Shown one piece after another: positions 26,780 to 44,316 of a DNA stretch of 63,258 nucleotides. Positions within the stretch are counted from its first letter, which is position 1, and each line of letters opens with the position of its first letter. Both the position numbers and the translations under genes were made by a program. The stretch comes from Candidatus Hermodarchaeota archaeon (lineage in GTDB: Archaea > Asgardarchaeota > Lokiarchaeia > Sigyniarchaeales > SOKP01): NCBI GenBank assembly GCA_048885925.1, contig JBHLLG010000014.1, positions 1 through 63,258 of the forward strand, written 5' to 3'. The notes under the pieces were generated by a model. That model made no database searches, was not told the DNA's origin, and saw only the letters and a program-made list of their open reading frames with translations.

Positions 26780-27088
26780 GTTAATTTCCTCAATTATTCT
26801 TCTTTAATCTCTTAAATATAATTTGATTTAAAGAAATTTTTTAGTTAGATCTAATTTTGTCAATAAATAGGAAGTATTGGTAATCTTGCTAGATTAATCT
26901 TTTGACTAACACAATAACTAGTAAGAATATATTGCATTATAGTTATATTCTTATTGAATTAAGGTATTGTTCTATATTCTGATACGAAAATACTTTTGTA
27001 AATATTTTAGAAAATTTTAATTTTTAATCCTAATTATTGTTATACATTAACTTCTAAAACTTATAAAGCACAACTTTCTTTCTAGTCT

Positions 27089-27159
27089 GCGCTCGTAGTA
27101 TAGGGGTAATATGCTGGCTTCCCAAGCCAGCGTCCCGGGTTCAAATCCCGGCGGGCGCA
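27089..27159 (+). tRNA. tRNA-Gly (CCC)
   Basis: Acceptor stem GCGCTCG/CGGGCGC, anticodon arm CTGGC-TTCCCAA-GCCAG, T arm GGTTCAAATCC; no intron, CCA not encoded. Confidence 0.95.
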
Positions 27160-27206
27160 TCTCTTAATTCTTTGAAGTTATTCTAGGTAAAACAATTGAA
27201 AATAAT

Positions 27207-27461: not shown

Positions 27462-27847
27462 TTTATTTTATCCTCACAAAATTTAATTTATTTATTTAAA
27501 TATTATTAAACTTCAACTATATAAATGCTTTCCTTTTATTTTTTAATCATCTATAATTACATACAAAAAGATTAAACGTATTTGTTTGAAATTATTTTTG
27601 TGTGAAATTTTTTTATTATAAGGTTATTTTGGTATAAATATTAAAGTTTTGAATAATATAACATTAACATAAGTTGGTGAATTTGATCAATAAAATTATA
27701 ATGATCAAATTTGTGAGCAAAAAAGAGTAAAATATTTGGTAATAAAAAGTGAGTCTTCTTTTATTAAAGAGTAATTAAATTTGATAATGAAATATAGTAT
27801 TGAAATTTATTATTTTTATAAACAACTCTAATATAATAATTATTATG

Positions 27848-28510
27848 TCAGTTAACTTTTTCAATCTTTTTTAATAGATCTCTCAAATGAAGGTTGCCCA
27901 TACCAAATTTCGTACGAAAAGAAAACATTAATACTAAATTGAATTTCAAATTATTAATTTCCATGAATTTAGAAATAAATTTTTCATTATTCTCTAATTC
28001 GAAATACATATTTTTTACTTCAATTAATTTTTCCTCACTACGAACTTGAAACTCATTCATTATTGAAAATAGGGTGTTACTTGGCAAAGATGAATATAAG
28101 ACATTTCCATCAATAGTAAACATTCCACTTCCTAAAATCTCTTTATCATCCACACAATCTCTTAATAATTGGATAATTTGCTGGAAGATTGGCAAAGATG
28201 TAAATGATAATTCTGCATCATCTTCTTGATTGTTATTTAAAGTTCCATTACTACTTTCATAAAATTCCATATGTGTGAATTCAAAATCGACAGTTTGATA
28301 ACTCCTAATACTAAAATTTTTGTCAATAAAGGCTTGAAAACTATGTTTACAGCATAAATTAGAGGGAATTGATATGGTTGTTAATTGTTTAGCTTGATTT
28401 ATTATTTTTATAGGGATTTTCAATTCCTTTCTTGTCTTACAGGTAGGACAAACTATAATTATATTTCTATACATTTCTTTAGATGCTGAATCGTCTTTAG
28501 TAATCATCAA
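27848..28510 (-). CDS. Zn-ribbon plus roadblock/longin-like domain protein
   Basis: CPTC...CCKH Zn ribbon, then ILGSGMFTIDGNVLYSSLP...KFGMGNLHLRDL resembling a roadblock/profilin-like fold. Confidence 0.6.
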   Translation of the reverse strand: MMITKDDSASKEMYRNIIIVCPTCKTRKELKIPIKIINQAKQLTTISIPSNLCCKHSFQAFIDKNFSIRSYQTVDFEFTHMEFYESSNGTLNNNQEDDAELSFTSLPIFQQIIQLLRDCVDDKEILGSGMFTIDGNVLYSSLPSNTLFSIMNEFQVRSEEKLIEVKNMYFELENNEKFISKFMEINNLKFNLVLMFSFRTKFGMGNLHLRDLLKKIEKVN

Positions 28511-28976
28511 TTTTTTCTTATAATGTATAATATTTTTAATTACTTTTTTGTGTGTTATTTATACTATTTTAAAGAAATTAAACACTCAAAAATTATTTAT
28601 TATGTAATTTTTTTAAGAAATTTAAATTTTTGTTAAATTCAGTATAAATTCAAATAACTATATTTATGTGAAAAAAAATGTCGATAATATTTAGCTGAAT
28701 TTACAACATTTTACGAATTTATATAACTGAAAAAAAATTGTGACTTACATTGCTATGAGTTTTTTGGGATTGTGAAACTTTAAATAGGGTTTCTAATATA
28801 AGTTTTTTAGTTCAATATTAATAAAAGTACTAAAAAAACATAACACTTACTAATATTTTACACACAAAAAACAATTGTGTAAAAAAAATTCAATAATAAA
28901 AATTGAGTTAGTAATAAAAAATTATGGTTATGATTCAAGAGAATAGAATCTGCAAAAAAATACGCATGAAGTCAAT

Positions 28977-29789
28977 ATGATAGCTATGAACAACACCCAA
29001 AACATAAATGATAATTCAGAAAAAGTACATATGCTGGGTTACGGTCTATTAGAAAATTCAAATATTATTAATAACGGAATATTTGACATAGTTTTTCAAA
29101 AAGGAATCGGTGTACCACTTATACAAAACATAATTGAACTATATAAAAATGAAATAATAACTAAAAAGCAGGGGAATTCCATTATCCCTTTAGAGGAGTT
29201 TACCATTTATATACAATATTTTAATAATAATGAAAATGAAATTTCTGTCATTATATATATGGAAGAAAAAGACCGAGCAGTAAATTTCTCCAAGTTATAC
29301 TTCTTATCAAGGGATGTAAATAAAAAAATTCTTTCGAAGGCTACTAGTTCAGAAATAATGAATATTTTTGAAACTACTCTAGAAATACCAAAAACTGATG
29401 GTATAATCGCAATTTTTATTATAGGTTCTACTGGTAGTCCATTAATTTCAAAAATTAATAAAAAACGTAGTAATATTGCAGATCATGAAGTCCATATTGG
29501 AGGTTTTATTTCAGCAATATTATCTTTTTCAAATACCATCATTGGACAAGAAACTGGTGCTAAATTAAAAGAAATTAATTTTGGTAACCAACAATTTTAT
29601 GTTATATCAAAAAGTAACGTTATCTTTGCCTTTTTAGTAGAAAATATGAACTCTTTACTTCAAAGGTATATGTACCTCATTGCAGATGAATTTTTATATG
29701 AATATAAAGATTACCTTAAAAATTTTAATGGCGATATCACCCCATTCGCCGATTTTGAAGAAATTATAAACCAATATTTCATAATTTAA
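28977..29789 (+). CDS. Longin-like domain protein (first gene of the che cluster)
   Basis: C-terminal IFIIGSTGSPL..GGFISAILSFS..LKEINFG..IADEFL..Y..FNGDITPFADF, typical of Asgard longin domains. Confidence 0.65.
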   Translation: MIAMNNTQNINDNSEKVHMLGYGLLENSNIINNGIFDIVFQKGIGVPLIQNIIELYKNEIITKKQGNSIIPLEEFTIYIQYFNNNENEISVIIYMEEKDRAVNFSKLYFLSRDVNKKILSKATSSEIMNIFETTLEIPKTDGIIAIFIIGSTGSPLISKINKKRSNIADHEVHIGGFISAILSFSNTIIGQETGAKLKEINFGNQQFYVISKSNVIFAFLVENMNSLLQRYMYLIADEFLYEYKDYLKNFNGDITPFADFEEIINQYFII

Positions 29790-29807
29790 AAAAAAGGTGG
29801 ATAAAAA

Positions 29808-30335
29808 ATGGCTCAAAAGCAATATGAAGGAAAAGATCATGTATCAGTTCTTTCTTTTAAAATAGGTTGGGAAGAGTTCTGCATTGATCTTTATGATGTA
29901 AAAGAAATTATTCAAGCAGGTCAAATTCGAAAATTACCAAAAGGGTTAGATTACATTGATGGCATTTATAATTATAGAGGCGAGATTATTCATGTAATTA
30001 ATCTAAAGAAACGTTTAAATCTAGATGAATATCTTTTGTATTCAAAGCATTCATCTTATGAACAAGATTTAGGTGCTACAAAAAAATACATTATCATTTT
30101 AAAAGTTGAGAACGATCTAATAGGGTTCTATACAGATAGTATTATCAGTATAGACCATATTGATTCAGCTGAGATTGTTGGATTAAGTCCAATTTTTCAG
30201 ACCAGCGTTGCAATCGAATTTATTAAGGGTATAATTAATTTTAAAGAACGACCAAGAGTTATGCTTGATTTAAGTAAAATTTTTAGTGAAGTTGAGAAAT
30301 TCAAAATCCAACAAGATTTGTCATCTTTAACATAA
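29808..30335 (+). CDS. cheW: Chemotaxis coupling protein CheW
   Basis: FKIGWEEFCIDL..VKEII, IDGIYNYRGEIIHVINL, IGFYTDSI. Confidence 0.9.
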   Translation: MAQKQYEGKDHVSVLSFKIGWEEFCIDLYDVKEIIQAGQIRKLPKGLDYIDGIYNYRGEIIHVINLKKRLNLDEYLLYSKHSSYEQDLGATKKYIIILKVENDLIGFYTDSIISIDHIDSAEIVGLSPIFQTSVAIEFIKGIINFKERPRVMLDLSKIFSEVEKFKIQQDLSSLT

Positions 30336-30362
30336 AATCAAATAAAAAAAGGAGTTGATAAA

Positions 30363-30743
30363 ATGACAAAAAACGAGAAGAAAAAGGTCCTAATAGTTGA
30401 TGATGCACAGTTCACTCGAAACATGTTGAAGAATATAATAAATAAAATCGATGACATCGAAGTTATCGGTGAGGCTTCTAATGGTGACGAAGCTATCTCT
30501 TTATACAAGAAACTAAACCCTGATTTAGTTACCATGGATTTAGTGATGCCATCTAAAGGTGGGATTGAGGCAACAGAAGAGATACTGAAAGTAAATCCTA
30601 AAGCATTGATAGTAGTAGTATCCGCTTTAGGTCAAGAAGCTTTGGTTTTAGAAGCAGCAAAAAAAGGAGCAAAGGATTTTATTCAAAAGCCATTCAAAAC
30701 CGAACAAATAGTGGAAGTTATGGACCGAATATTAAAGAAATAA
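30363..30743 (+). CDS. cheY: Response regulator CheY
   Basis: LIVDDAQFTR, PDLVTMDLVMP, VSALGQ, DFIQKPF; directly upstream of cheA. Confidence 0.93.
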   Translation: MTKNEKKKVLIVDDAQFTRNMLKNIINKIDDIEVIGEASNGDEAISLYKKLNPDLVTMDLVMPSKGGIEATEEILKVNPKALIVVVSALGQEALVLEAAKKGAKDFIQKPFKTEQIVEVMDRILKK

Positions 30744-30783
30744 ATACAGTTAGATAAAATAAATATAAATTTAAGGTGATTAT

Positions 30784-32859
30784 ATGTCATCTAAAGAGGA
30801 TATAAAGTTATTCTTAAGTGAAGCTGAGGATCTGATTCAAAAGACTGAGGAACAAATTTTACATTTAGAGGAAAATCCAAAAAATGTAAAACCAATCCAG
30901 GAGTTATTTTTTACCTTCCATGCATTAAAGGGATTAACTGCGATGGCCGGTTTTGAAAATTTATCGAAATTTTGTCATCACTTTGAAAGCTTTTTAGAAA
31001 ATGCAAAAGATAAAAAAATTAGCAGAAATAAACAAAGCAATTTCATTGAAATGTTATTCGAAAGTCTTGATGTGCTAAGAAATGTTTTAAAAAGAGTAAA
31101 GAAAGCAGATTTAAGCGATATTGATGAAAACCTTGTAAAAGATATAAAATCCAGTTTTGAAAATTTTGAGACTGAATATGATATCACCTTTATTAAACCA
31201 TTAAATATAGAAGAAATGACTAAAATTCTTAAACAGGCAGAAAATAAACCTTTCAAAATTTATATCCGGCTTGAGGAAACTTGTGTTTTCAAAAAAGTAA
31301 GATTATTCATCATTTTTAGAGCTTTAAATGAAAATGGTACTATATTCTGGACGAATCCTGCGCCTGAAGAATTAGAAAAAGCTACACTCAAAAACAATTT
31401 TGAAATATTTTATATTACAAAGAAAAATAAAACTGATATCTCTAATATTTTAGATGAAATTCTTGAAATAGAAAATATTGTTATTACTTCATTAAATCCT
31501 GAGGAATTTAAGAAATCTATAATAGATTTAAAAGAGAAATATGAACAGCAGAAGTTATATGCTTCAAGTGAAGAAATAGTTGAACCAAGTTATAGGGAAG
31601 AAGTTGATTTAGAAGAAATAGAGAGAGTCTCTCAAATTGTTGAGGATTATTCAGAAGATAATCTTAAAATAACAAGTGTGAAAGTAAATATCGAGTATCT
31701 TGAGGAATTAATGAACTATTTTGGAGAATTAGTTATTATGAAGAACCATATTAGTCAATTACTAAAAGAAAAACAAGAGAGAATTCTTATAAGGTTAATT
31801 GATAAAATGGATAAACCGTTTTTAGACATTCAAGAAATTCTATTTAAGTTAAAATTAATTAGAGTAGATTCAACATTTAGAAGATATAAAAGGCTGGTTC
31901 GTGATGTGGCAAATGAAACTGGGAAAAAACTAAAACTAATACTTGAAGGCACTAATGTAGAAATTGATAGAAAAATCTTAGAAGAAATTAATACTCCATT
32001 AGTTCAATTAATTAGAAATGCAATTTACCATGGAATTGAGACACCAAAGGAACGTATAAAACATGGAAAAACCGAACTTGGTACACTTAGATTAAAAACC
32101 TTTAGAAAAGCGGGATCAATTTTTATAGAAGTTGAAGATGATGGAGCAGGGATCAATTATGATAAAATAAGAGAAAAAGTTGTGAAGAAAGGATATTGTG
32201 AACCAGATGAAGCTAAAGAATTAACTAATGAAGATTTACATCGCTTTATTTTGATGCCAGGTTTCTCAACATTATCAGATGCAGATATTATATCGGGTAG
32301 AGGTATGGGTCTAGCTATTGTTGCTGAAAAAATAAAAGAATTAGGTGGAGATTTTGCGATCCAATCTAAATTAGGTATAGGTACAAAATTCACAATAATA
32401 GTTCCATTTACTAGAGCAATATTAAGGGCTCAATTAATTCAAATTGCTGATGACTTATTTGCAATTCCAACCGAGAATATTAATCAGATATATTTTTTCA
32501 ATCCTAACCAAGTTGAATACATGGGAGGAGAACAATATTATAAAATAAATTCAAGTTTATTCCCAATTGTTTACCTTGATGAGCATTTGAAAATGAGAGA
32601 TCAATCTAAAACAAACTCTCATAAGAAAATTGTTATTCATTGTCAGCGAGATGAGGATGCATCAGCGGTATTTGTTGCAGATAAACAACTCCAACAACTA
32701 GATGTGGTTGTAAAGCCTTTTAAGTCCAGCTATTCAGATTCTCGTGATATATTAGGTTCTACCATAACAGGAGAAGGTACAATATGTTTAATAATCGATG
32801 TATTAAGTATAATCTCATCAAAATTAAATGAAAATGTAATTACAAATTTAAATATATAA
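30784..32859 (+). CDS. cheA: Chemotaxis histidine kinase CheA
   Basis: HPt FHALKG, P2-like region, RNAIYHGIE, EDDGAGI, PGFST, SGRGMGL, C-terminal CheW-like domain. Confidence 0.95.
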   Translation: MSSKEDIKLFLSEAEDLIQKTEEQILHLEENPKNVKPIQELFFTFHALKGLTAMAGFENLSKFCHHFESFLENAKDKKISRNKQSNFIEMLFESLDVLRNVLKRVKKADLSDIDENLVKDIKSSFENFETEYDITFIKPLNIEEMTKILKQAENKPFKIYIRLEETCVFKKVRLFIIFRALNENGTIFWTNPAPEELEKATLKNNFEIFYITKKNKTDISNILDEILEIENIVITSLNPEEFKKSIIDLKEKYEQQKLYASSEEIVEPSYREEVDLEEIERVSQIVEDYSEDNLKITSVKVNIEYLEELMNYFGELVIMKNHISQLLKEKQERILIRLIDKMDKPFLDIQEILFKLKLIRVDSTFRRYKRLVRDVANETGKKLKLILEGTNVEIDRKILEEINTPLVQLIRNAIYHGIETPKERIKHGKTELGTLRLKTFRKAGSIFIEVEDDGAGINYDKIREKVVKKGYCEPDEAKELTNEDLHRFILMPGFSTLSDADIISGRGMGLAIVAEKIKELGGDFAIQSKLGIGTKFTIIVPFTRAILRAQLIQIADDLFAIPTENINQIYFFNPNQVEYMGGEQYYKINSSLFPIVYLDEHLKMRDQSKTNSHKKIVIHCQRDEDASAVFVADKQLQQLDVVVKPFKSSYSDSRDILGSTITGEGTICLIIDVLSIISSKLNENVITNLNI

Positions 32860-32916
32860 TTTTTTTAAAAAAAAACAAGATTTATCAAATGAAGAAAAAA
32901 ATGGAGGAAAAATAGA

Positions 32917-34923
32917 ATGGGTTTTAAAAAAGTTGACTATGACGAATTAAAAACAAAAATTGGTCCAAATTTTCTTGGTATTCCCATTAGAGAGGGAGGA
33001 AAAGTAGTACAAAAAAGTCATCGAGAAAGTAAAATTCAATCGGGATATACAGGGGTATCTTCTGAAGTACTGATATTAAACGAAGAATTCATGGAATTTC
33101 ATTACCAAAATGATGGAAGAAGAAAAAGCGCAAGTGGTAATGGAAATATAACTATTTTTAATAATTCTATTAAAGATAGAATTTGGGATGCAAATTTACA
33201 ATTTTCAGGGTCTCAATTTGATGATCAAAAGGAAGATAATAATATAAATTTAGGAATATTTGAACCAAGTTCAAATAAAGTATTAAAATATGAAATTGTA
33301 AATTCAGATGAATTATCAGATTTAGTTAAAGTTACAGAAATTATTGAAAATCAGAGTGATGATATTTCATTCACTAATCTTGGTACAGAAATATCTAATA
33401 CTATGGAAAATAATGGCAAACAAAATTATATTCTTTTATTAGGTAAGGAAAATAAGATAAAGTTTTCAATTAATGTTTTTAACATTTCTAATTCTATATT
33501 AGAAAGAATAAAATTTAAAAAAATTTTTCTGGATAACTTTTATGACATAGAATTTAATTGCAATAAAAGTACTGAATTTAAAATAACTAGAAATCTAATA
33601 GAATGTGAGATAAATGATTTAAGTCCAGGGGATCATGCAACAATAATTCTGGTAGCAAAAATTTTCCCTAAAAAGAAAGACAATGTTAAAACAGGTAAAA
33701 TTGAATTAACATTTAATTTATCACATAAAGTTATTTCAGGAGCAAAAATTAACCGATTTTCAGCATATTCGCATGCAATGCATGCTATTAAAAAGAAGGA
33801 GAAAGATCATGCTCCAAATCACTGGCAATGTTCCCTTTTATTTGAAAATCATAGTGATTTTAAAATGAAATTAATCTCTATTCTAATCTATGATGAGTCA
33901 AAATCAAATAAAATTTTAGATTTAGATTTTAATTCTTTAGGAAATCCTATTATAATCCCTCGTGGAAAGTATACTTCACAAGAATTTGATTTTGCCGACG
34001 AAAAAGAGCCTAGATTTTCAAGAAAAGTGGAATATACAGTAGATTCTAAAACAGAAAGCAATTCAATAATTACTTCAAAATATGATGAATCATATTTTAC
34101 TTTAGCTAGTGTTACATTTAAGAAGGAGTTGTCTGACCATGAAATTAAATCATTTAAAGAAGCCGCCTTAGATTCAAAAATTATTATAAACAATATTGGT
34201 ACTGTTCCAGTAAAATCGCTTCAAATCTCAGAGACAATCCCAGAAGATTTCTTACCAAGCAATAATATATCAGACTATACATTTTATAAATTATCAGGTA
34301 AGCTAGATATTCCTGATATTGATTTAAGAGTAAATCCTAATGACGAAGATCCTTCACATAAACACATAATAGAATTGAATATCAACTTAAAGGAAATAAA
34401 TTCCAAATCAGTGATTCTACCCGATGATTTTTTAGAATTAAGATATCAAATTAAAGCAATAAATCCTGATTATAAGAAAACTTACGATTTTCCATTAAAA
34501 GTTAGCTCATTTTATCCAAAATATGAAAATTCAAGAGTTTTTTATGTTATAACCAACGATCTTACTTCATCAGAAAAATCTATGATAAAAGTTTCTCATA
34601 GGAGACGTAAAGTATTAATAGGAAAGGAAATATTTCCGGGAAGAAATAGTAATGAATTCGCGATTTACATAGTTGCCAAAAATGGTTCAAACATTAAGCT
34701 TGATAGTGTAAATGTGAAAGATACTTTTCCAGATTCCTTTGAACTTATATCTTCAAATATAGAGCATAAACTAAGTAAATCTAAGAAAAATGGAGAACAA
34801 ACAATTTCTTTCGTTATTGATACTTTAATGCCGTATCAAGAAAAAGAAATAATGTATTATTTAAAGAATTTAAGCGGAAAAGATGTTAAACAATCTGAAT
34901 TAGAATCATTTTTTGTTGGATAA
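32917..34923 (+). CDS. Uncharacterised beta-rich protein with repeated Ig-like modules, in the che cluster
   Basis: 668 aa, repeated I.N.G/S...I.D/E.IP.DF patterns; GGAGG SD at 32903-32907; no signal peptide seen. Confidence 0.7.
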   Translation: MGFKKVDYDELKTKIGPNFLGIPIREGGKVVQKSHRESKIQSGYTGVSSEVLILNEEFMEFHYQNDGRRKSASGNGNITIFNNSIKDRIWDANLQFSGSQFDDQKEDNNINLGIFEPSSNKVLKYEIVNSDELSDLVKVTEIIENQSDDISFTNLGTEISNTMENNGKQNYILLLGKENKIKFSINVFNISNSILERIKFKKIFLDNFYDIEFNCNKSTEFKITRNLIECEINDLSPGDHATIILVAKIFPKKKDNVKTGKIELTFNLSHKVISGAKINRFSAYSHAMHAIKKKEKDHAPNHWQCSLLFENHSDFKMKLISILIYDESKSNKILDLDFNSLGNPIIIPRGKYTSQEFDFADEKEPRFSRKVEYTVDSKTESNSIITSKYDESYFTLASVTFKKELSDHEIKSFKEAALDSKIIINNIGTVPVKSLQISETIPEDFLPSNNISDYTFYKLSGKLDIPDIDLRVNPNDEDPSHKHIIELNINLKEINSKSVILPDDFLELRYQIKAINPDYKKTYDFPLKVSSFYPKYENSRVFYVITNDLTSSEKSMIKVSHRRRKVLIGKEIFPGRNSNEFAIYIVAKNGSNIKLDSVNVKDTFPDSFELISSNIEHKLSKSKKNGEQTISFVIDTLMPYQEKEIMYYLKNLSGKDVKQSELESFFVG

Positions 34924-34967
34924 AAATTAAAATGAAATAAAAAGTCAAGAAAAAAAGGAGGAAAATT

Positions 34968-35807
34968 ATGAAACTACAATTTTATGAAACAATGTATGAT
35001 AAATCAAAAGAATATCTTTCATATCTTTGTGAACAAATTTTACCCCAATTCACGGATAGCGAATTAAAGTTTTTTTTAGAAGATATTATAGAAACAAAGA
35101 GTACTGGGAAAAAAAAGGCAAAGTCAGAAGGTTTTGATAAGATTGGGGACGATACTGGGAAACTCGCAGATCTCTCGAAATTAAAGCCAGAAGAATTTAA
35201 ACCTTTATTTCAGGTTTTTATAAGCAGAGAAATAAATGATAGGAATTCTGTAAAATGGCGCTTTTATCAATATCTTAAATACATTTCGGATTTAAAAATA
35301 AAATCAGTAAAGATCAATCGAGATCAAAATCTAGATCGATTAATTGATTTTATTATCGAAACAGAAGAGAAACAAATTCTTTTTGTCTTATGTTATGATA
35401 TGATAGAATTAAATGATTATGACAAAGCATTAAAGGAAATGAACGAATTTTCGAAAAACCAAAACCTTCTTCCTGATAGAATTGTTTTTGCAACAAACAA
35501 GTCATTTCGAAACATACCAATAGATATTTCTATTAAGGTAGGTAATACAGAAGTAATACCAGAGTTATGGGTTGAATGGATTGAAGAAAGTTGTCCTTTT
35601 AATAGAGAAGACTTATTAATCGTTAATAACTCCGATCTCAAACTTGCTGGGTTCAATTTCACGAGTACAGATGATTTATTGAAGTATGTTTTTAAATATT
35701 CAAAAGGTGGACAAGTTTCAATTTATAGACAAGTAGATTTTTTTACTGAAGTTTCTGATGAACAACCTGAAGTGGAATTAATTTGGAAAGGTATAATGTT
35801 AAAATGA
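34968..35807 (+). CDS. Uncharacterised protein in the che cluster (possible degenerate PD-(D/E)XK-like fold)
   Basis: 279 aa; GGAGG SD at 34957-34961; LIDFIIET..ILFVLC..PDRIVFAT pattern. Confidence 0.65.
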   Translation: MKLQFYETMYDKSKEYLSYLCEQILPQFTDSELKFFLEDIIETKSTGKKKAKSEGFDKIGDDTGKLADLSKLKPEEFKPLFQVFISREINDRNSVKWRFYQYLKYISDLKIKSVKINRDQNLDRLIDFIIETEEKQILFVLCYDMIELNDYDKALKEMNEFSKNQNLLPDRIVFATNKSFRNIPIDISIKVGNTEVIPELWVEWIEESCPFNREDLLIVNNSDLKLAGFNFTSTDDLLKYVFKYSKGGQVSIYRQVDFFTEVSDEQPEVELIWKGIMLK

Positions 35808-35850
35808 AAATTAATCTAAAAAATTAGCAGATAAGGATGAGGTAAAAAAT

Positions 35851-37824
35851 ATGTTAAAAAGCCAATCAGAAAAAATAGAATTTGGAGACAGTGTTAATGT
35901 TGTGATACTTCAAATATTTGATGAGAAATATCTTCTTGAAGTAGAAAATGTAAAAGAAATTTATGTGCCGGGAGAAAATATTATCCCCGTTCCATTAGCA
36001 GATAAATCAATTGTAGGAATTATTAATATAAGAGGAGATATTTACTCCGTTATATCGTTACGACATAATATATATGATAATAGTATTGATTATGGATTAA
36101 GTAACCGATCAAGAATTCTATTATTAGAATATCGCAATTTAAAAATTGCATTACTCGTGGATGCAATTATTGGTGTTAAAGATATACCAATTTCTGTTTT
36201 TAAAAAGCAAGGTACAATTGTGAAAACAAATATTGATTTTAAATTTATAAAATTAACTGGTATATTTCAGGATGAGTCACTAATACTATTAGATTTAAAC
36301 GCTCTTATTCAACCATATCTTAAATCTTTAGGAAAAGCAATAGATACAAAAGTAAAATTAAAACCAAAAATTCTAGAGAAACCTAAAGTGCAACCAAAAC
36401 AAGCACCAAAATCTACAATAGATTCTACTGTGGTTATCCCTCAAGAAATACAAATTCATGGAAAATTATCTTCAATTCCAAAAGCAGCAGATATTAAAGA
36501 AATTTCTTTGTCAGAAGAACAACAAGATATGCTTAAAGAAATTGGGAATATTGGTACAGGAAATGCTGTCACAGCGTTATCTCGATTGGTAAAAAAGAAA
36601 ATTGATGTAACTTTAACAGATGTAGGAATTATTCCATTAGAGGAATTACCTAAACAGTTCGGTGGATCTAAAGAGAAAGTATGTGGAATATTTTGTCATA
36701 TAGATAAACCTACTCAAGCAACAATTTTAAATATTTTTGAAATGACTCCTCTAATGAAAATGATTGCGGATTTAACGGGTAAAAAGTCAAAGATAGATCC
36801 TGATAAAGTTAAAACTAAAAAAGATCTTGATGATTTTGCAATTTCTACAATTGTAGAAATGGGAAATATTATGGCAGGTCATTATGCTTCAGCTTTAGCA
36901 GATTTATTAGGCACAAAATTGATGATTGATATACCTGAATTTGCAATGAGTGATGCTGGTGAGATTGGAGAATTTCTATCAAAAGAACTAAAATCTATTG
37001 CAGAATTCTTTATAATAATTAAAACTTCAATACAAGTTGCGGATTTAAAACTAAAAGGTATGTTTTTCTTTATCCCTGATCTTGAGACATTGAAAATATT
37101 TTTTGATAAATTAGGAATCGAACATAGTATATCTGATAAACACCTAAAAACTACAAAGTTGTCTAAAGCTGTGGATGTGGATAAAATAAAACTTACAGAA
37201 CTTCAAAGAGATGCCCTACAAGAAGTTGGAAATATAGGCGCTGGAAATGCTGCGAATGCTTTAGCTCAGATGATTAATAAGCGAGTTGATATAAATGTTC
37301 CAACAGTAGAAATGGTCGAATTAGACGAATATGCTAAAAAAATAAGTAAAAAGAATGAAAAACTCCTAGTTGCGTGGAGTAATGTTGTTGGAAAGACAAG
37401 GGCTACGGTTCTAACATTATTTAATCTTAAAGATGCAATAGATATCACATCAATAATTGTAGATGATCCTGATAAAAAACAAATTGACTTAAGACGAAAA
37501 ATAGACACTGCATCTGATTTTCCAGAGCTGTATCATAGTGCAATTTCTGAACTAGGACACATTCTCGGAAGTCATTATGTAAGTGCTATTGGTGACTTAT
37601 TAAGTTTGCGTTTAATGACAGAGCCTCCTGATATGTCAGTTGATACAGGAGAACTCTTATTTAAGATTTTACAAGAAGAAATTGGTCTACTTAGGAAATT
37701 GTCATTGGTAATTACTACAAGTGTTCTTATAACCGATATTAAAGTCACAGGCACATTTTTATTTATTCCGAGTTTAGAAACATTACACGAATTATTAGAT
37801 GCGTTGTTAAAGTTTTATTCATAG
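35851..37824 (+). CDS. CheW-CheC-CheC fusion protein
   Basis: N-terminal CheW (IVGIINIRGDIYSVISL, IALLVDAI), Pro/Lys linker, then two CheC domains (LKEIGNIG..EMGN; LQEVGNIG..ELGH). Confidence 0.88.
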   Translation: MLKSQSEKIEFGDSVNVVILQIFDEKYLLEVENVKEIYVPGENIIPVPLADKSIVGIINIRGDIYSVISLRHNIYDNSIDYGLSNRSRILLLEYRNLKIALLVDAIIGVKDIPISVFKKQGTIVKTNIDFKFIKLTGIFQDESLILLDLNALIQPYLKSLGKAIDTKVKLKPKILEKPKVQPKQAPKSTIDSTVVIPQEIQIHGKLSSIPKAADIKEISLSEEQQDMLKEIGNIGTGNAVTALSRLVKKKIDVTLTDVGIIPLEELPKQFGGSKEKVCGIFCHIDKPTQATILNIFEMTPLMKMIADLTGKKSKIDPDKVKTKKDLDDFAISTIVEMGNIMAGHYASALADLLGTKLMIDIPEFAMSDAGEIGEFLSKELKSIAEFFIIIKTSIQVADLKLKGMFFFIPDLETLKIFFDKLGIEHSISDKHLKTTKLSKAVDVDKIKLTELQRDALQEVGNIGAGNAANALAQMINKRVDINVPTVEMVELDEYAKKISKKNEKLLVAWSNVVGKTRATVLTLFNLKDAIDITSIIVDDPDKKQIDLRRKIDTASDFPELYHSAISELGHILGSHYVSAIGDLLSLRLMTEPPDMSVDTGELLFKILQEEIGLLRKLSLVITTSVLITDIKVTGTFLFIPSLETLHELLDALLKFYS

Positions 37825-37943
37825 GAGTTAAATTTAATTTAATCCATATTTATTTTTTTTTAAAATTTTCATGAATCAAAATAGAATATCCAAATTAGAT
37901 AAAAACATCTATGTAAAATATCAAAAAAAGCCTTTGAATCAAT

Positions 37944-38468
37944 ATGTTGAAAACCAGCTATTATGATTACATTTATAAAGTAGATGGTGAAACTGTTAAG
38001 CTTAGACCCGAAAAAATCTTTGTTCCTGATGATGTTTATTTAATTATAGATAAAGAATTAAAAATAATTTGGATATGGGCGGGTAGTCATTCACGTTTAT
38101 TCCATCGTTATATGGCTGCAAATTGGGCAGGAAAACTCAAAACTAAGAAGAAATTTTTTAATTTTAAATATGAAGTGATTAAACAAGGCATAGAACCCTC
38201 TGAATTTCACATTATTTTTAAAGAAATTAAGGAAAATCGTGCTGATTTAAATTATCCCGGACAATCACGAAATGTTTTCATTAAAAATGAATCATCAGGA
38301 ACTATTGATTTATCAGAAAAGCCCGGGGGTTTGGATTTATCAAAATCAGTAAAATCACATATAATGAAGATTTTATCTGAAATTAAAGAAATGCAATTAC
38401 ATATAAAATATTCTCTTGATCATATCCAACAGCGTTATGAAGAAATTGAAAAATTATTGGAAAGATAA
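37944..38468 (+). CDS. Single gelsolin-like domain protein with C-terminal coiled coil
   Basis: DDVYLIID..IWIWAGSHS..A..A..IKQGIEPSEF matches the gelsolin repeat consensus D.FILD...IF.W.G..S...QG.E...F. Confidence 0.75.
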   Translation: MLKTSYYDYIYKVDGETVKLRPEKIFVPDDVYLIIDKELKIIWIWAGSHSRLFHRYMAANWAGKLKTKKKFFNFKYEVIKQGIEPSEFHIIFKEIKENRADLNYPGQSRNVFIKNESSGTIDLSEKPGGLDLSKSVKSHIMKILSEIKEMQLHIKYSLDHIQQRYEEIEKLLER

Positions 38469-38480
38469 AAGTGTTTAGAA

Positions 38481-39491
38481 GTGATAAGAATTGATGATAT
38501 CAAATTCAATGAAAATTACTATAATCTACTAGTTGATTATTTAATCAACGCTACTGGATTAAACCTAAATTATTATCGAAAAAACCACATTGAGAAAAGA
38601 ATAAAATCCAGGATGATTCGAGTTAATTGTAATACATTCGAGTCGTACTATAATTATTTATTAGAAAAACCATCAGAAACTAAAAATTTTTTAGATTGTT
38701 TCAATATTAATTATTCTGTTTTTTTTAGAAACTGGGAAGTCTTTAAACAATTTGAAAAAATATTTTTATATTCATTATATCTAAAAAAAGACGATATCAT
38801 AAGTGATCTTGAGCCGAATCCAGAGAGGCAATATCAAAGAATACAGAGAAATTTATCTTCTCACTCAAAAAAACCAAAAAAAGTATCTCTTAATCGAATT
38901 ATATCACAAACTTCGTTATACCGTAAAATATGGAATGGTTTAGATTCCGAAGGTACTATTAATATTTGGTCATGTCCTTGTGCTAATGGAGAGGAACCAT
39001 ATTCAATTGCTATGATTTTAGATAATCTCAAAAAGCAAACTCCTGGATTTTCAAAATATAGAATTATTGCCTCTGATATTGATGGAGATGCCATTAAAAG
39101 AGCAAAAATAGGAGTTTATAAAGAGGATTCCACAAAAGATGTATCAAAATATTATGATGATAACTATTTTGTTAAAAAGAAGGAAAATTGTGGATTTATT
39201 TATTCAATAAATAAAAAAATTCAAGATAGTATAGAATTTATAGAAGAGGATGTAACCAAAGGCCATCAAACATCATTGAAATATGATATTATCTTTTGTC
39301 GTTATCTCCTAATATATATTAGTAGAAAAATACGAAAAGTATTTTTAAACATAATTGAAAGCCGATTAAATCCTGGTGGTTTATTAATTTTAGGTAAAAC
39401 CGAATCACTTCTTAACTCTCAATGTGATTTGAAATTAATAGACACTTCAAATTGTATTTACATAAAAAGAGGTGGCTTAAATCTCAATTAA
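38481..39491 (+). CDS. cheR: Chemotaxis methyltransferase CheR
   Basis: NINYSVFFRN, IWSCPCANGEEPYSIAM, ASDID, YDIIFCRYLLIY, LNPGGLLILGKTE. Confidence 0.93.
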   Translation: MIRIDDIKFNENYYNLLVDYLINATGLNLNYYRKNHIEKRIKSRMIRVNCNTFESYYNYLLEKPSETKNFLDCFNINYSVFFRNWEVFKQFEKIFLYSLYLKKDDIISDLEPNPERQYQRIQRNLSSHSKKPKKVSLNRIISQTSLYRKIWNGLDSEGTINIWSCPCANGEEPYSIAMILDNLKKQTPGFSKYRIIASDIDGDAIKRAKIGVYKEDSTKDVSKYYDDNYFVKKKENCGFIYSINKKIQDSIEFIEEDVTKGHQTSLKYDIIFCRYLLIYISRKIRKVFLNIIESRLNPGGLLILGKTESLLNSQCDLKLIDTSNCIYIKRGGLNLN

Positions 39492-40608
39492 AGTTCTTGT
39501 AGCAGAAGATTCAAGCTTTCAACGAAAACTTATCTCTGATATGTTATTATCAAACGATGAGATTACAAACGTGGAACTTGCAAGAAATGGAAGAGAAGCA
39601 ATAGAAAAAATTGAGAAAATTAATCCCGATGTTTTAATTTTAGACTTAATGATGCCTGAAGTTGATGGTATAACCGTATTTAAATTCTTATCAGAACACT
39701 ATCCTATACCAACAATTATATTTTCAGCTAAAAACCCAGAAACACTGGATGCATCTATTCAAGCTTTACTTTTAGGCGCTTTTGACTTCATTTTGAAGCC
39801 AAAAGGTCTCTGGGAAGAAGAATTCCCAAAGTTTAAAGAAAAACTTCTTTCCAGTACTTTATATGCAGGAAAAATCAAAAAAACTTATGAAAAGCGTAAT
39901 TTATTAATTAAAACTTCTCTTGATAAACCAATCTATTTAGATGAATCTTCTATAGATTATCAAATAGCGAAAAAACCAAAAGAAAAAACAATTGACACTC
40001 CAAAAACAAAAAAAACACCAAAAACTATACTACTATCTAAAATAGTAACTATTGGTACTAGTACAGGAGGACCTAAAACTTTAAAATCAATATTAAAAAA
40101 CATTCCCAAGGATTTTTCTTTTCCAATATTGATTGTACAACATTTAGATGCTTTCTTTATGCAAGAACTTTCAAAATCACTAAATCATATATGCGCGATT
40201 GAAGTTAAAATCCCTGAGAATGGAGAAAAAATTCTACCAGGTGTTGCTTATCTTAGCCCTGGAGGAAAACACATGAAAGTTATCTTAAAAAATAATATTC
40301 CTTGCCTTGAAACTTTTAAAGGAGCACCTGTAAATTTTTGTGTTCCATCTGTTGATGTTCTCTTTTTTTCTGTAGCAGAGATTTATAAGAATCAAAGTCT
40401 AGGAATCTTATTGACAGGTTTAGGAGAAGATGGAGCTGCTGGATTAGAAGCAATTAAGAATGAAGGTGGAATGACAATTGCCGAGTCAGAAGAAACATGT
40501 GTTGTATATGGTATGCCGAAAGCAGCTATACAACGAGGAGCTGCAAAATTAGTGATCCCTAATTATAGAATTGAAGAAAAGATAATTGAATTTGGAAATA
40601 AAATATAA
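39481..40608 (+). CDS. cheB: Chemotaxis methylesterase CheB (REC plus esterase), copy 1
   Basis: The receiver N-terminus ISIKVLVAEDS lies upstream of the ORF-track ATG 39541. Other motifs: LDLMMP, GTSTGGP, VQH, PSVD, LTGLGEDG, YGMP. Start codon uncertain (see findings). Confidence 0.9.
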   Translation: MSIKVLVAEDSSFQRKLISDMLLSNDEITNVELARNGREAIEKIEKINPDVLILDLMMPEVDGITVFKFLSEHYPIPTIIFSAKNPETLDASIQALLLGAFDFILKPKGLWEEEFPKFKEKLLSSTLYAGKIKKTYEKRNLLIKTSLDKPIYLDESSIDYQIAKKPKEKTIDTPKTKKTPKTILLSKIVTIGTSTGGPKTLKSILKNIPKDFSFPILIVQHLDAFFMQELSKSLNHICAIEVKIPENGEKILPGVAYLSPGGKHMKVILKNNIPCLETFKGAPVNFCVPSVDVLFFSVAEIYKNQSLGILLTGLGEDGAAGLEAIKNEGGMTIAESEETCVVYGMPKAAIQRGAAKLVIPNYRIEEKIIEFGNKI

Positions 40609-40632
40609 TTAATCAAACAAAAGTTAAATTTT

Positions 40633-41178
40633 ATGGTGAATAAGATAAAATCCTATGGAAAAATTGATGAAATCGATCGAAATGGTGAGATTTTCTTACC
40701 TATAGGGCATTATACCTTAATAAATTGTAAAAATAAACCTAACAATACTAATCCAAAAATATCAATTTATGGATTGGGCTCTTGTATTGCACTTATTCTT
40801 TTTGATTGTAAAAATAAAGTTAGTGGAATGTCTCATATTTTACTACCTAAAGCTCAAAAAAATAAAAAAATTGAATATCCTCATAAATATGCAGATTTAT
40901 CTGTAAAATTGCTCGTGCACGAATTAGTGAAACACGGTGCTATGAAAGAAAACATTAAGGGAATTATAATTGGAGGTTCAAAAATTTTTGATTTAGATGA
41001 AAATTTTATGGGCATTGATAATATCCAAGCGATTAAATTAGAATTAGCAAAATTAAATATAAATATTTTAAAAGAACACGTAGGAGGAAAAGAAGGAAGA
41101 GCAGTTATTTTTGATACAAAAAATTTTACTGTTCTTGTTAAATTAACTTCAGAAACGAGTTTTACGAGACTTCAATGA
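40633..41178 (+). CDS. cheD: Chemoreceptor glutamine deamidase CheD
   Basis: GLGSCIA, GMSHILLP, KYAD, GGSKIF, HVGGKEGR. Confidence 0.92.
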   Translation: MVNKIKSYGKIDEIDRNGEIFLPIGHYTLINCKNKPNNTNPKISIYGLGSCIALILFDCKNKVSGMSHILLPKAQKNKKIEYPHKYADLSVKLLVHELVKHGAMKENIKGIIIGGSKIFDLDENFMGIDNIQAIKLELAKLNINILKEHVGGKEGRAVIFDTKNFTVLVKLTSETSFTRLQ

Positions 41179-41210
41179 TCTTTAAATTATTTATTATGTA
41201 AATATTCGAG

Positions 41211-41885
41211 ATGAAATTAAAAATGGTTAAAAATAAACAAATAAAAGATTTAAAATTAACTCCAGAGCAAATTGATGTATTAAAGGAGTTTGGTAATATT
41301 GGGTCAGGGAATGCAATTACAGCTCTTTCAGATTTATTAAATGATACTGTTAATGTCTCTTTAACAGCATTAAATTTATGTGCTTTTTGGAAAATTCCTG
41401 ACTTATTTGAAGATCCTAATATTGAAGTATTTGGAATATACACTGAAATTTTAGACAATCCTGATCTATCGATAATTCAGTTTTTTACCAAGGAATCTAT
41501 TATAAATTTAATTAATATTTTGAATGAATTTAATAATAGTAATTCGTCTGAAATTAAAAATATTAGAGATCTAAATGAGTTCTCTTATAGTATAATTTCA
41601 GAAATTGGGAATTTATTGGCGGGACATTATGCCAGTGCATTGGCTGACTTATTATCAATTAAATTAGTTCCAAGTGTACCAAAAGTAGCACTAGATAATT
41701 TAACTGCTATGTTAAATGGTGTAATCGCTAAATACTCTCAATTTGCAGATTACTCAATAATCATCGACACAAAATTACAGGGAAAGGCTATCAATTTGAA
41801 TGGAATTATATGTCTTTTACCGAGTATAAACATTTTAAACAAATTATTTAAGATTGTGAATTTGAAGTTTAATTTAAATTTATGA
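41211..41885 (+). CDS. cheC: CheY-P phosphatase CheC
   Basis: DVLKEFGNIGSGNAITALS and SEIGNLLAG (two E-x-x-N motifs). Confidence 0.9.
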   Translation: MKLKMVKNKQIKDLKLTPEQIDVLKEFGNIGSGNAITALSDLLNDTVNVSLTALNLCAFWKIPDLFEDPNIEVFGIYTEILDNPDLSIIQFFTKESIINLINILNEFNNSNSSEIKNIRDLNEFSYSIISEIGNLLAGHYASALADLLSIKLVPSVPKVALDNLTAMLNGVIAKYSQFADYSIIIDTKLQGKAINLNGIICLLPSINILNKLFKIVNLKFNLNL

Positions 41886-41926
41886 ATTAAATAATACCGA
41901 ATGAAAAGAATTAAAAAACCAAAATA

Positions 41927-42868
41927 ATGTCAAAAGTAGCACTATTAGAGGATTTACTCAGTAACTTCCTAAATGAAGTTCAAGTCCTTTCTGCAGCTCT
42001 AGTTGTAGACTTGCAAGGTTTCATTATTGCTAAAAAGTCAATAAGGGGGTTTGATGACGAATTAATTGGTGCTATTATGACAATCATAGAACAAACTTTA
42101 AATAAAATTAAAAGATATACAGAAACTTCATTTGGAAGTGGTACCTTTGATACAAATGAATTTCAACTATTTTATGTTGAATTAAAAAGAGTAGTCCCGG
42201 CAATTTTTGTTTTAGTTGCAGATCCCTATTCTTCAATGAATCTTTTCATTCCTTATGCCTATATAGTGGCAGAAAAAATATCTTTAATTTTAAATAATAA
42301 AAACCCATGTATTAATTTACCTAGATTAAGCTCTAATGGAGAATTAATATTCGGATCCAAAAATAATCATATAAATGAGATTGTAATAGTAGGTCCTGAA
42401 GCAGTAGGTAAAAGTACATTAGTTGAAATGTATTGTAGTGGACATTTTGAGGAAAACCACAAACCAACAATAGGAATTTCAATCATTAAGAAAGAACTTC
42501 AAATCTCAAAAGATATTACTTTAACTTTTAATCTCCTTGATTTGGGAGGGATAAAAAGTTTTGCCAAAATAAGAAAATTCTACTATAAATATTCAAAGGT
42601 GGTTTTGATAATTTTTGATTATTCTAGGATAGAAAGTTTCAACGAAATTTCTGATTGGATTGAAGAATCAAGAAATTTCATTAAAAATGAATCAATCCCT
42701 ACTATTATAATTGGAAATAAAATAGATTTATTAGACAATCGTAATGAAATCAGATCTAAAGCTCAAAGTCTAGCCCACCAATATAATTTTTCTTTTTTTG
42801 AAACATCTGCTTTAACTGGAGAAGGGATTGATGAATTATTTACTCATCTGATTTCAATTCTATTTTAG
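41927..42868 (+). CDS. Roadblock/LC7 domain fused to a Rab/Ras-like small GTPase
   Basis: N-terminal SAALVVDLQGFIIA roadblock; G1 GPEAVGKST, G2 PTIG, G3 DLGG, G4 GNKID, G5 ETSA. Confidence 0.9.
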   Translation: MSKVALLEDLLSNFLNEVQVLSAALVVDLQGFIIAKKSIRGFDDELIGAIMTIIEQTLNKIKRYTETSFGSGTFDTNEFQLFYVELKRVVPAIFVLVADPYSSMNLFIPYAYIVAEKISLILNNKNPCINLPRLSSNGELIFGSKNNHINEIVIVGPEAVGKSTLVEMYCSGHFEENHKPTIGISIIKKELQISKDITLTFNLLDLGGIKSFAKIRKFYYKYSKVVLIIFDYSRIESFNEISDWIEESRNFIKNESIPTIIIGNKIDLLDNRNEIRSKAQSLAHQYNFSFFETSALTGEGIDELFTHLISILF

Positions 42869-42942
42869 CTTTAAGAAAGATATAAATTATATAACACTAC
42901 TAATTATTAGAAACATTTTACAAATTAAAAAGAGAGATTTTA

Positions 42943-44316
42943 TTGACTATTGATGTTATTGTAGCAGACGATAGTGCTTATTTAAGAAAAAGTATTGCTA
43001 ACATTCTCAATGAACATGATTCAATAAATATTGTCGACTTTGCAAAGGATGGAAAACAAGCAGTTGAATATGTTAAAAGATATACCCCTGATGTTTTAGT
43101 TTTAGATCTCTTAATGCCTAAAATGAACGGGTTAGATGCTTTTAAACTAATTATGGAAGAACATCCAACTCCTACAGTAATTCTATCAGCCATTAGCCCC
43201 AAAAATTTAGACTCATCTATACAAGCTTTATTAATGGGAGCTTTTGATTATATAATAAAGCCTGGTGGTATTGGTGCTAAAGATTTACCTAGGTTTAGTG
43301 AAGAATTACTCGCTAAAGTGTTATTAGCTTCACAATCTCAGATTAAAAGAATTTTCAAGAAAGAAGAAACATTATTAAGTAAACGTAAATCTCTTCGACA
43401 AGAAATGGTTGATCGAATTTTTGATTTTGGACAATACATCAATCAATTAAAGCCTATTGATGAACTTGAAGAAGAACCGAAGATTGATACCTTTGAAATA
43501 ATGAAAGTAAAAGCAATTCTTACAGATAAAATAAAGCCAACTGATACAGATGAATCATCTATTAAGTTAGAGAATCAATTAATTGAGCCCAAAGTTGAAA
43601 ATAATTTAGAAAGACCCATAAAATCAATTGATCCATCAAATATACTAAAAACTAAGAAGCAAAAAATACCCACCATAATACCCTATGAAAAGAAAGAAAT
43701 TGAACCTCTTCCCGATCTTTCTCCCATTATGGGAATTGAATTAACCTCTAAAGTTGTTGTTATAGGGGCTAGTGTAGGAGGACCTAGAACGATTACTACG
43801 ATTTTAAAAGAAATTCCGAGAGATTTCAGTGCCCCCATATTAATCGTTCAGCACTTATCATCTCATTTTACAGAAGCTTTTGTAGACAATTTAAATTTAG
43901 AATGCAACTTAAAGATAAGAATAGCTAAAGATGGAGAGTACCTTCAAAATGGTGTTGTGTATATAGCCCCTGGAGATATGCATATGGAAATTTCTATAGA
44001 AAATAAAAAACCATCAATCAAAATATATAAAGGAACACCAGTCAATTTTTGTATGCCTTCTATAGATTTATTATTTTTTTCAGCAGCAAAAGTCTTTAGA
44101 AACCGCACAATGGGAATTTTATTAACTGGTATGGGTTCTGATGGTGTTCAAGGTTTGGGAGCAGTTCAGAAGGTTGGCGGTAAAACTATTGCTGAGGCAG
44201 AAAGTACTTGTATCCTCTATGCGATGCCAAAATTTGCAGCAGAAAAAGGATTTGCAAACTATATCTTAGAAAATTATAAAATTTCTGAACTTATCACTAG
44301 TTTTATTAATAAATAA
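42943..44316 (+). CDS. cheB: Chemotaxis methylesterase CheB, copy 2, with long interdomain linker
   Basis: VADDS, LDLLMP, ~130-aa linker, GASVGGP, VQH, PSID, LTGMGSDG, YAMP. Confidence 0.9.
   Translation: MTIDVIVADDSAYLRKSIANILNEHDSINIVDFAKDGKQAVEYVKRYTPDVLVLDLLMPKMNGLDAFKLIMEEHPTPTVILSAISPKNLDSSIQALLMGAFDYIIKPGGIGAKDLPRFSEELLAKVLLASQSQIKRIFKKEETLLSKRKSLRQEMVDRIFDFGQYINQLKPIDELEEEPKIDTFEIMKVKAILTDKIKPTDTDESSIKLENQLIEPKVENNLERPIKSIDPSNILKTKKQKIPTIIPYEKKEIEPLPDLSPIMGIELTSKVVVIGASVGGPRTITTILKEIPRDFSAPILIVQHLSSHFTEAFVDNLNLECNLKIRIAKDGEYLQNGVVYIAPGDMHMEISIENKKPSIKIYKGTPVNFCMPSIDLLFFSAAKVFRNRTMGILLTGMGSDGVQGLGAVQKVGGKTIAEAESTCILYAMPKFAAEKGFANYILENYKISELITSFINK

Follow-up and report, generated by a model that had tools for sequence, protein, structure and literature searches.

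A putative roadblock-GTPase fusion with conserved linkage to a type of chemosensory gene cluster in Asgard archaea

Why does a gene for a Ras-like small GTPase stand in the midst of archaeal chemotaxis (che) genes, and does it belong there? The locus that raises this question lies on contig JBHLLG010000014.1 of assembly GCA_048885925.1, a stretch of 63,258 nt (hereafter the window) from Candidatus Hermodarchaeota archaeon (Asgardarchaeota; Lokiarchaeia; SOKP01) that is AT-rich (~28% GC) and carries an archaeal EF-2 (aEF-2) gene along with Asgard-type genes. An open reading frame (ORF) at 41927..42868 on the + strand, with an ATG start and 313 amino acids (aa) plus a stop codon, encodes a fusion of an N-terminal roadblock-type domain and a small GTPase domain. 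The initial annotation of this DNA had placed the fusion gene between cheC and a second cheB, and this is where it lies: CheC (41211..41885, + strand; PF04509, E 1.9e-21) ends 41 nt upstream and the second CheB, CheB2 (42943..44316, + strand; PF01339, E 3e-57), begins 74 nt downstream, all on the same strand. The opposite strand of 41927..42868 holds no overlapping ORF of at least 60 aa. We read the GTPase as a G-protein accessory, conserved but dispensable, of a Lokiarchaeia-type chemosensory island that is independent of an archaellum, possibly coupling that island to actin or polarity, and we give this reading a probability of about 0.5.

Linkage of the GTPase gene to one type of che cluster

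Fourteen genes follow one another on the + strand of the window from 28977 to 44316, separated by intergenic gaps of 12–119 nt, in the order u270, CheW, CheY, CheA, u668, u279, CheW-CheC-CheX, u174, CheR, CheB1, CheD, CheC, GTPase, CheB2. The part of this operon that precedes CheC, from u270 through CheD (28977..41178, + strand), was assigned with Pfam and keeps its order in related loci. A lone GTPase gene within one che cluster is not striking by itself. The genome of this archaeon (3.9 Mb, 95% complete, with one CheA and with seven receptor genes located elsewhere) yielded 55 tblastn matches to small-GTPase paralogs, from which ~0.2 GTPase would be expected by chance in a 17-kb island. What is far beyond chance is that the linkage is kept across genomes.

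The fusion protein has 217 database homologs from Asgard sources, which match it over the full length at 48–72% identity. A locus scan with the family alignment recovered 29 Asgard loci, where a single-protein query had found one; the che genes of these loci were located by tblastn with the window proteins, and ORF lengths were measured. All 25 complete short-form orthologs (312–325 aa) were found beside che genes. The initial annotation had proposed conservation of the neighbourhood as a check and had regarded orthologs usually unlinked to che genes as evidence against a Che-related role; since 25/25 short forms are linked, that objection fails. The most common arrangement was CheC-X-CheB2, where X is the GTPase, followed by variants such as CheB1-X-CheB2 (loci L010 and L024), u174-X (L015, L016, L018, L020), CheR-X (L025), and CheC-X-u220 (L013). 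In three loci (L014, L017, L019), the 10 kb upstream of an X-CheB2 pair contained no further che gene, and the remainder of the cluster was located elsewhere. The most constant neighbour was CheB2, which directly followed the GTPase in 17 of the 29 loci and came after a gap of ~2 kb in L023. The short forms stay linked to che genes despite rearranged gene orders and a sequence divergence of 45–70%.

Four of the 29 loci were not counted as che-linked. One of them, L027, holds a truncated copy at a contig end. Another, L029 (9512-10978), encodes a 488-aa paralog, 38% identical to the window protein, in which a longin-like N-terminus (Pfam Longin, E 8e-4) is joined to a roadblock and a GTPase domain. 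The remaining two encode long forms, a variant of 430–498 aa with a C-terminal extension: L011 (2596-3888) and L021 (7264-8568) specify 430 and 434 aa, respectively, with an extension of ~115 aa. A weak winged-helix hint was obtained with Pfam for the extension in L011 (E 0.014), and no Pfam match for that in L021. In a tree of 42 rows, from which one mis-extracted own-genome paralog (row C63) had been left out, the family formed one clade against the own-genome paralogs (100/100), and the 14-row che-linked group that contains the window protein had as its sister a long-form group of 7 rows (100/99 for the two combined).

The linkage is specific to one kind of cluster. As a comparison set, we used 19 che loci of 13 other che-positive Asgard genomes, whose Che proteins are 23–52% identical to those of the window. 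No GTPase was detected in these 19 loci by tblastn (E <=1e-4, coverage >=25%); therefore, the GTPase belongs to one che-cluster type, which also carries u270, u668, u279, u174, the CheW-CheC-CheX fusion, and two CheB genes. A second scan, anchored on u174, disclosed 29 clusters of this type. The GTPase was located within 18 of them, at a distance of 14.6 kb on the same contig in 1, and on another contig of the same assembly in 3, so that the cluster or its genome holds the GTPase in 22/29; 1 further cluster was not judgeable. On a complete chromosome (G153; L065, L072), the cluster was found to be split, CheY-CheA-u668-u279 lying ~1.08 Mb from the part that runs from CheW-CheC-CheX to GTPase-CheB2, and the stretch examined there showed no stand-alone CheW and no u270.

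Presence and absence of the gene follow those of the che island. Among 151 sampled genomes of the phylum, 16 contained CheW domains, and orthologs of at least 45% identity were present only in G000, G150, G113, and G109. Of those assigned to the same genus as the window, G000 and G150 carry CheW as well as the ortholog, and G008, G049, and G132 (94–99% complete) carry neither; G150 represents the same contig as locus L009 and hence is not independent evidence. In G132 (L096/L097) and G049 (L098/L099), synteny with the window is kept on either side, at 50–92% protein identity, and the homolog of the window ORF at 24082-24738 (- strand) abuts aEF-2, which in the window lies on the opposite strand, convergent with the che operon. 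This junction implies that the segment between 24.9 and 44.3 kb is missing in one piece. That segment (window 24896-44316, ~19.5 kb) comprises a PAS histidine kinase, u220, u270, and the che genes up to and including those for the GTPase and CheB2. A tRNA-Gly(CCC) gene (27088..27161, + strand; ARAGORN) marks the left edge of the che island in the window, and in G049 the same tRNA is all that remains of the segment at the junction between the homolog of 24082-24738 and aEF-2. A search for att-like repeats at the island edges returned only a 13-nt AT-rich inverted match, which we take as chance.

The fusion architecture is already known, and its conserved chemosensory setting is undescribed: no paper describing a che linkage of a roadblock-GTPase was found, and subscription-only papers or supplements could hold one.

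Domain architecture of the fusion protein

The G domain spans aa 150–313 (42374..42865; this and the following coordinates are on the + strand) and was delimited by Pfam, PDB profile, and fold searches. Pfam Ras (PF00071) matched aa 152–310 with 128.1 bits (cut-off 21.6; E 3.1e-37), and 36/36 aligned family members matched it as well. With a profile of this 36-member family, the best PDB matches were Rab39B (4e-34), Rab26, Ypt51, and a Thorarchaeota Rab (7ezb, 4e-31). An AlphaFold2 (AF2) model of the whole protein reached a predicted local distance difference test score (pLDDT) of 74 and a predicted template modelling score (pTM) of 0.70. In a Foldseek search, this model retrieved KRAS and Rab chains at E about 1e-12 and TMt about 0.8, in agreement with VIA, in which Rab3C, Rab6, and Rab28 scored at Z 20.6–20.8. 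The Rab3C match (Z 20.8) covered 167 aligned residues with a root-mean-square deviation (rmsd) of 2.6, and the Lokiarchaeal Rag-like protein 8yl2 scored below it (Z 17.5). A preprint (10.1101/2024.02.28.582541), which mentions neither roadblock nor chemotaxis in its main text, sorts the Asgard Ras superfamily into RasL, RagGtr, ArfL, ArfR, and MglA groups; because the G domain scores Ras/Rab-like, we expect it to belong with RasL.

All five nucleotide-binding motifs are present, as had been noted at the outset together with the lack of the catalytic Gln. The G1 P-loop GPEAVGKS (aa 156–163; 42392..42415) has Glu158 at the position of Ras Gly12. The G2/switch I motif KPTIG (aa 179–183; 42461..42475) contains an invariant Thr181 and lies in a region modelled at low confidence (pLDDT <50 for aa 172–182). 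In the G3/switch II motif DLGGIK (aa 205–210; 42539..42556), Ile209 replaces the catalytic Gln of Ras/Rab. The G4 motif NKID, which confers guanine specificity, occupies aa 264–267 (42716..42727), and the G5 motif ETSA occupies aa 292–295 (42800..42811). The key residues of G1–G5 are invariant or nearly so in the 36-sequence family alignment. HMMER aligned the family segment 'dlgGlksf' on 'dtaGqerf' of Rab39B, gap-free around G3 and with no switch-II insert.

To describe the G3 position across the family, we compiled 148 rows from 120 database proteins and 28 locus ORFs, two sets that overlap and were not deduplicated. Among the 147 rows with a DxxG match, the following residue was L in 105, I in 25, S in 5, V in 3, A in 3, F in 2, K in 2, T in 1, and H in 1, and Q in 0. 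At the position of Ras Gly12, Glu (GxE.xGK[ST]) occurred in 12/12 of the most frequent G1 variants listed, which account for 83 of the 148 rows. The protein ends in ISILF and has Cys residues only at aa 128 and 170; with no C-terminal Cys, there is no CaaX-type lipidation or prenylation motif. Accordingly, the window protein shows none of the canonical Ras/Rab features of a Gln after DxxG, a Gly at position 12, and a C-terminal Cys prenylation motif.

The roadblock-type domain (aa 1–122; 41927..42292) is joined to the G domain by a linker (aa 123–149; 42293..42373) that contains an invariant Pro132; the model is weak at the end of this linker (pLDDT 56 for aa 141–150 and <50 for aa 145–147). 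As called in the initial annotation from the window protein, the roadblock assignment was frail, given that Robl_LC7 (PF03259) matched aa 9–52 of that protein with 12.2 bits against a cut-off of 23 (E 0.15); it is supported at the level of the family, in which 32/36 aligned members matched PF03259 at E <=0.01 (best 8.5e-7), and in the predicted topology. The AF2 secondary structure of aa 3–122 runs helix-strand-strand-helix-strand-strand-strand-helix. Roadblock domains match this succession of helices and strands, and longin domains begin with strands. The Foldseek and VIA matches of the whole model aligned aa 145–313 alone, which is the G domain, and a PDB sequence profile search with the roadblock domain returned nothing significant (best CvnB5, E 0.39). 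Judged by profiles and by the model, the roadblock identity is well supported, not structurally proven.

The closest described architecture is that of the Asgard RB-GTPases reported from Prometheoarchaeum MK-D1 (Tran et al. 2024, PMC10933270), with an N-terminal roadblock and a small GTPase in one chain and no switch-II insert; the window protein agrees with the definition given there. Two features set it apart. In the same paper, the fused forms are placed among the Rag-like/Arf-like GTPases, whereas the window G domain scores best as Ras/Rab, and the GTPase genes of MK-D1 are described as generally lying outside operons with regulators, whereas the window gene lies inside a che operon. Chemotaxis is never mentioned in PMC10933270 (0 occurrences), and MK-D1 has no che genes according to PMC9834061. 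Rag/Gtr proteins and Asgard Rag-like proteins (LokiRagO, PDB 8yl2) likewise hold G and roadblock domains in one chain, and Pfam Gtr1_RagA matched 20/36 family members, weakly. The Rag/Gtr order is reversed, however, with the G domain first and the roadblock C-terminal, in contrast to the roadblock at aa 1–122 and the G domain at aa 150–313 found here. Further differences are the stronger Ras/Rab matches of the window protein (128 bits for Ras; Z 20.8 for Rab3C) and its che rather than nutrient-signalling context.

Candidate outputs and further genes of the island

In archaea, the Che phosphorelay reaches the archaellum through CheY-CheF-ArlCDE, and the GTPase would also sit downstream of an archaeal Che phosphorelay. 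The systems differ in that the parts of the archaellum route were not found in the window's genome, where CheF, archaellin, and ArlD/E each gave 0/1. CheF was likewise not found in five further cluster-bearing genomes (0/5, one of them a complete chromosome) or in the phylum sample (0/151); archaellin was found in 0/5 and in 4/151 genomes (2 over the cut-off), respectively. Control genomes matched in every one of these searches.

A candidate for another kind of output is the gelsolin-fold protein u174 (174 aa; 37944..38468, + strand). Its AF2 model (pLDDT 83) was matched best by Foldseek to Thorarchaeota ProGel on actin (7c2f_B; E 2e-6, TMt 0.77, rmsd 2.0), followed by Heimdall and Loki two-domain gelsolins and by human gelsolin, villin, adseverin, and CapG; every listed match was a gelsolin-family protein or a gelsolin-actin complex. 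The match to Pfam Gelsolin was not significant (E 0.092). The protein comprises one gelsolin domain and a long, highly conserved C-terminal helix (aa 134–172), which we suspect to be a docking site. u174 is constant in this type of che cluster and directly adjoins the GTPase in four distant loci (L015, L016, L018, L020).

Asgard cells move by crawling, with protrusions that depend on Lokiactin, and gelsolins co-purify with this actin (PMC13716822); the word stem 'chemota' has 0 occurrences in the main text of that paper. Lokiarchaeum ossiferum possesses che genes and putative chemoreceptor arrays (PMC9834061); its che cluster is ordered differently, and its chemotaxis table (supplement file 4) lists no GTPase. 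The operon suggests an orientation towards actin rather than towards a motor. That neither CheF nor archaellin was found and that the operon includes a gelsolin-fold gene both fit a non-motor output.

The other genes of the island provide fewer clues. CheB2 consists of a receiver, a linker of ~150 aa, and a methylesterase; the linker (aa 126–271) has no Pfam match, and the linker-bearing form stays in place, with a similar apparent size, in clusters that have no GTPase. The first gene of the operon, u270 (28977-29789, + strand; 270 aa), belongs to no Pfam or NCBIfam family and stands upstream of CheW in 19/19 of the u174-anchored loci judged to cover that region; a paralog that is 41% identical lies beside a receptor gene on contig C59 of the same genome. 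The initial annotation had taken the u270 product for the longin protein of the cluster. We could not confirm this identity, given no Pfam, NCBIfam, or PDB match and a probability of 0.8% in an hhalign comparison with the roadblock alignment, and the Atlas leads for u270 (0.83 and 0.78) stayed below the threshold of 0.9.

A divergent, conserved gene at the boundary of the island, u220 (27848..28510, - strand), has homologs at the cluster start in 9/29 u174-anchored loci and additionally in L093, where both ends bear a homolog; in L013, L027, L089, L090, and L093, a homolog comes right behind CheC or the GTPase. By eye, u220 shows N-terminal Cys pairs resembling a zinc ribbon, and several paralogs are present in the same genome. 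Two further conserved proteins of the cluster have neither a clear family nor a hydrophobic segment: u668 (32917-34923, + strand), with a weak DUF11 match only, and u279 (34968-35807, + strand), with nothing usable in Pfam, NCBIfam, or Atlas. The CheW-CheC-CheX triple fusion (35851-37824, + strand; 657 aa) is 50–83% identical across related clusters.

A Che-linked G protein weighed against its alternatives

From the features described above, we infer nucleotide binding, slow hydrolysis, dimerisation, protein contacts, and a cytoskeletal output, which could be connected as follows. With G1–G5 intact, the G domain would bind guanine nucleotide. Because the equivalents of Gln61 and Gly12 are both missing, intrinsic GTP hydrolysis would be slow, resulting either in a long-lived 'on' switch or in a switch for which a partner supplies catalytic residues in trans. 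The roadblock domain may act as a dimerisation or docking platform. The Che phosphorelay would read or set the switch via phosphorylated CheY (CheY-P) or via the receiver of CheB2, the most constant neighbour, and the signal would be passed to a non-rotary output, the best candidate being the actin/polarity machinery reached through the gelsolin-fold protein of the same operon. The parts of this scheme deserve different credence. That the GTPase works with the Che system is quite probable, and its role as an output switch towards actin or polarity is possible, with the odds leaning against it. The fullest version, in which a bacterial-type receptor-CheA-CheY phosphorelay is wired in one operon via a Ras-like G protein to a gelsolin-fold actin regulator and so steers Lokiactin-based crawling or protrusions, is a doubtful one.

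Several observations weigh against a core output role of the GTPase in the Che pathway. Six of the 29 u174-anchored clusters lack it although the region is covered: in L069, L078, and L080, CheC is directly followed by CheB2, and in L089, L090, and L093, the order is CheD-CheC-u220. In 5/5 searched genomes of these six, the short-form ortholog was absent, and 1 of the five has a long form (52% identical). A gene missing from 6/29 clusters cannot be an obligatory output. Long forms nest inside the family tree, where a second long-form group (5 rows; 98/96) was found in addition to the sister group, and no CheW domain was found in the long-form genomes G109, G113, G151, and G152; the core activity is therefore independent of Che proteins. 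The scarcity of CheF and archaellin holds across the sampled phylum and is not limited to genomes with the GTPase. We considered whether their absence marks the GTPase as their replacement and rejected this, as CheF is found in 0/151 genomes whether or not the gene is carried, and the phylum-wide absence thus does not single out the GTPase as a replacement output. The roadblock fold rests on profile matches and predicted topology, with no structural match. Finally, among the other roadblock-GTPase paralogs of the same genome, only 1/4 has Gln after DxxG, and on these sequences the loss of Gln is not special to this clade. The GTPase is hence an accessory and dispensable in part of the lineage.

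Dispensability, together with the dozens of paralogs (55 tblastn matches) and the sister long forms in che-less genomes, is also what would be seen if an ordinary Asgard small GTPase with a membrane or trafficking role had merely hitch-hiked into the che island, with no functional coupling. We consider this highly improbable: all 25 complete short forms remain che-linked through rearrangement and 45–70% divergence, same-genus genomes lack the gene and the che block jointly, and the gene is separated from its same-strand neighbours by 41 and 74 nt. A closer competitor, still unlikely, keeps the GTPase within the pathway as a factor for adaptation or array organisation, which would gate or localise CheB2 or position receptor arrays. 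Such a factor would be comparable to the P-loop NTPases (ParA-like PpfA/ParC) that some bacterial che operons encode, but the present GTPase is not of the ParA/MinD type. The constancy of CheB2 as a neighbour (17/29 immediately downstream, ~2 kb away in L023), the X-CheB2 pair standing alone in L014, L017, and L019, and the ~150-aa linker of CheB2, which has no family, would suit such a factor. On the other hand, L069, L078, and L080 keep CheB2 in place with no GTPase, with ~1.4 kb from the CheB2 start to the next gene, and five loci (L015, L016, L018, L020, L025) have no CheB2 within 3–10 kb downstream of the GTPase.

The initial annotation had suggested an analogous Che-controlled polarity switch in one chain, with the roadblock domain or the 28977 protein (u270) as a GTPase-activating protein (GAP) or guanine nucleotide exchange factor (GEF). 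Taken literally, this would be a self-contained MglA/MglB-like polarity oscillator in which the Che system triggers reversals in the manner of Frz. An MglB-type GAP works by positioning the catalytic residues of MglA itself (in part, Wuichet 2014). These residues, which such a GAP would reposition, are missing in the present family, where Gln occurs in 0/147 rows. The logic is similar: in Myxococcus xanthus, a small GTPase and a roadblock protein act downstream of a Che-like pathway in non-flagellar motility, Frz acting on MglA/MglB through response regulators (PMC4316618; PMC3441718), and the window combines roadblock and small GTPase in one protein with a conserved che linkage. The components differ, as MglA and MglB are two distinct polypeptides and mglA lies away from frz (PMC4316618), whereas the window protein is a fusion encoded inside the che operon. 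MglA further has its own catalytic Gln, a Thr for Asp in G3 as in group 1 (Thr78; PMC3000849), and an intrinsic Arg finger, whereas the window protein has Asp and no Gln in DLGGIK, no Arg at that place in switch I (HKPTIG), and a Ras/Rab-like rather than MglA-like G domain. With Gln missing and Asp in place of the MglA-group-1 Thr, the likeness to MglA/MglB is one of analogy in logic and not of membership. The dispensability of the gene and the unconfirmed longin identity of the 28977 protein make the oscillator improbable as well. Conservons present a related analogy, being operons that join a histidine-kinase-type sensor with a roadblock-GTPase pair, the GTPase being proposed as the output (PMC4316618); their GTPase is of the MglA type, their components are separate proteins, and their kinase is a membrane kinase not accompanied by CheA, CheW, or a receptor array, in contrast to the complete Che pathway and the fused Ras-like protein of the window.

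An equally improbable alternative is a nucleotide-locked pseudo-switch, a permanently GTP-bound, constitutive scaffold regulated by its abundance. Rnd/RhoH-type proteins are GTPase-deficient and GTP-bound in this way. The family-wide replacement of Gly12 by Glu and of Gln61 by Leu/Ile, with G1, G4, and G5 invariant, would agree with such a state; however, Thr181 of switch I and Asp205/Gly208 of G3 are also invariant or nearly so, a conservation to be expected if the gamma-phosphate were still sensed. Some GAPs, such as Rap1GAP and TBC RabGAPs, supply catalytic residues in trans. A Gln provided in trans has been proposed for group 1 Rup (PMC4316618).

Returning to a conserved but dispensable accessory of the chemosensory island, this reading bears on what Asgard Che systems control, in a phylum where CheF was detected in 0/151 sampled genomes. 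The locus offers candidates: the Ras-like switch, the gelsolin-fold protein, and three or four conserved uncharacterised proteins, all of them encoded in one che operon and missing where that operon is missing. It places one of the many unexplained small GTPases of Asgard archaea in a concrete signalling context. It also presents a natural G protein with neither the Gln nor the Gly12 of Ras, whose catalytic partner, if there is any, should be encoded nearby. If the proposed coupling is true, prokaryotic chemosensing would be joined here to a eukaryote-style directed migration that runs from a small GTPase to actin, a hybrid predating eukaryotes.

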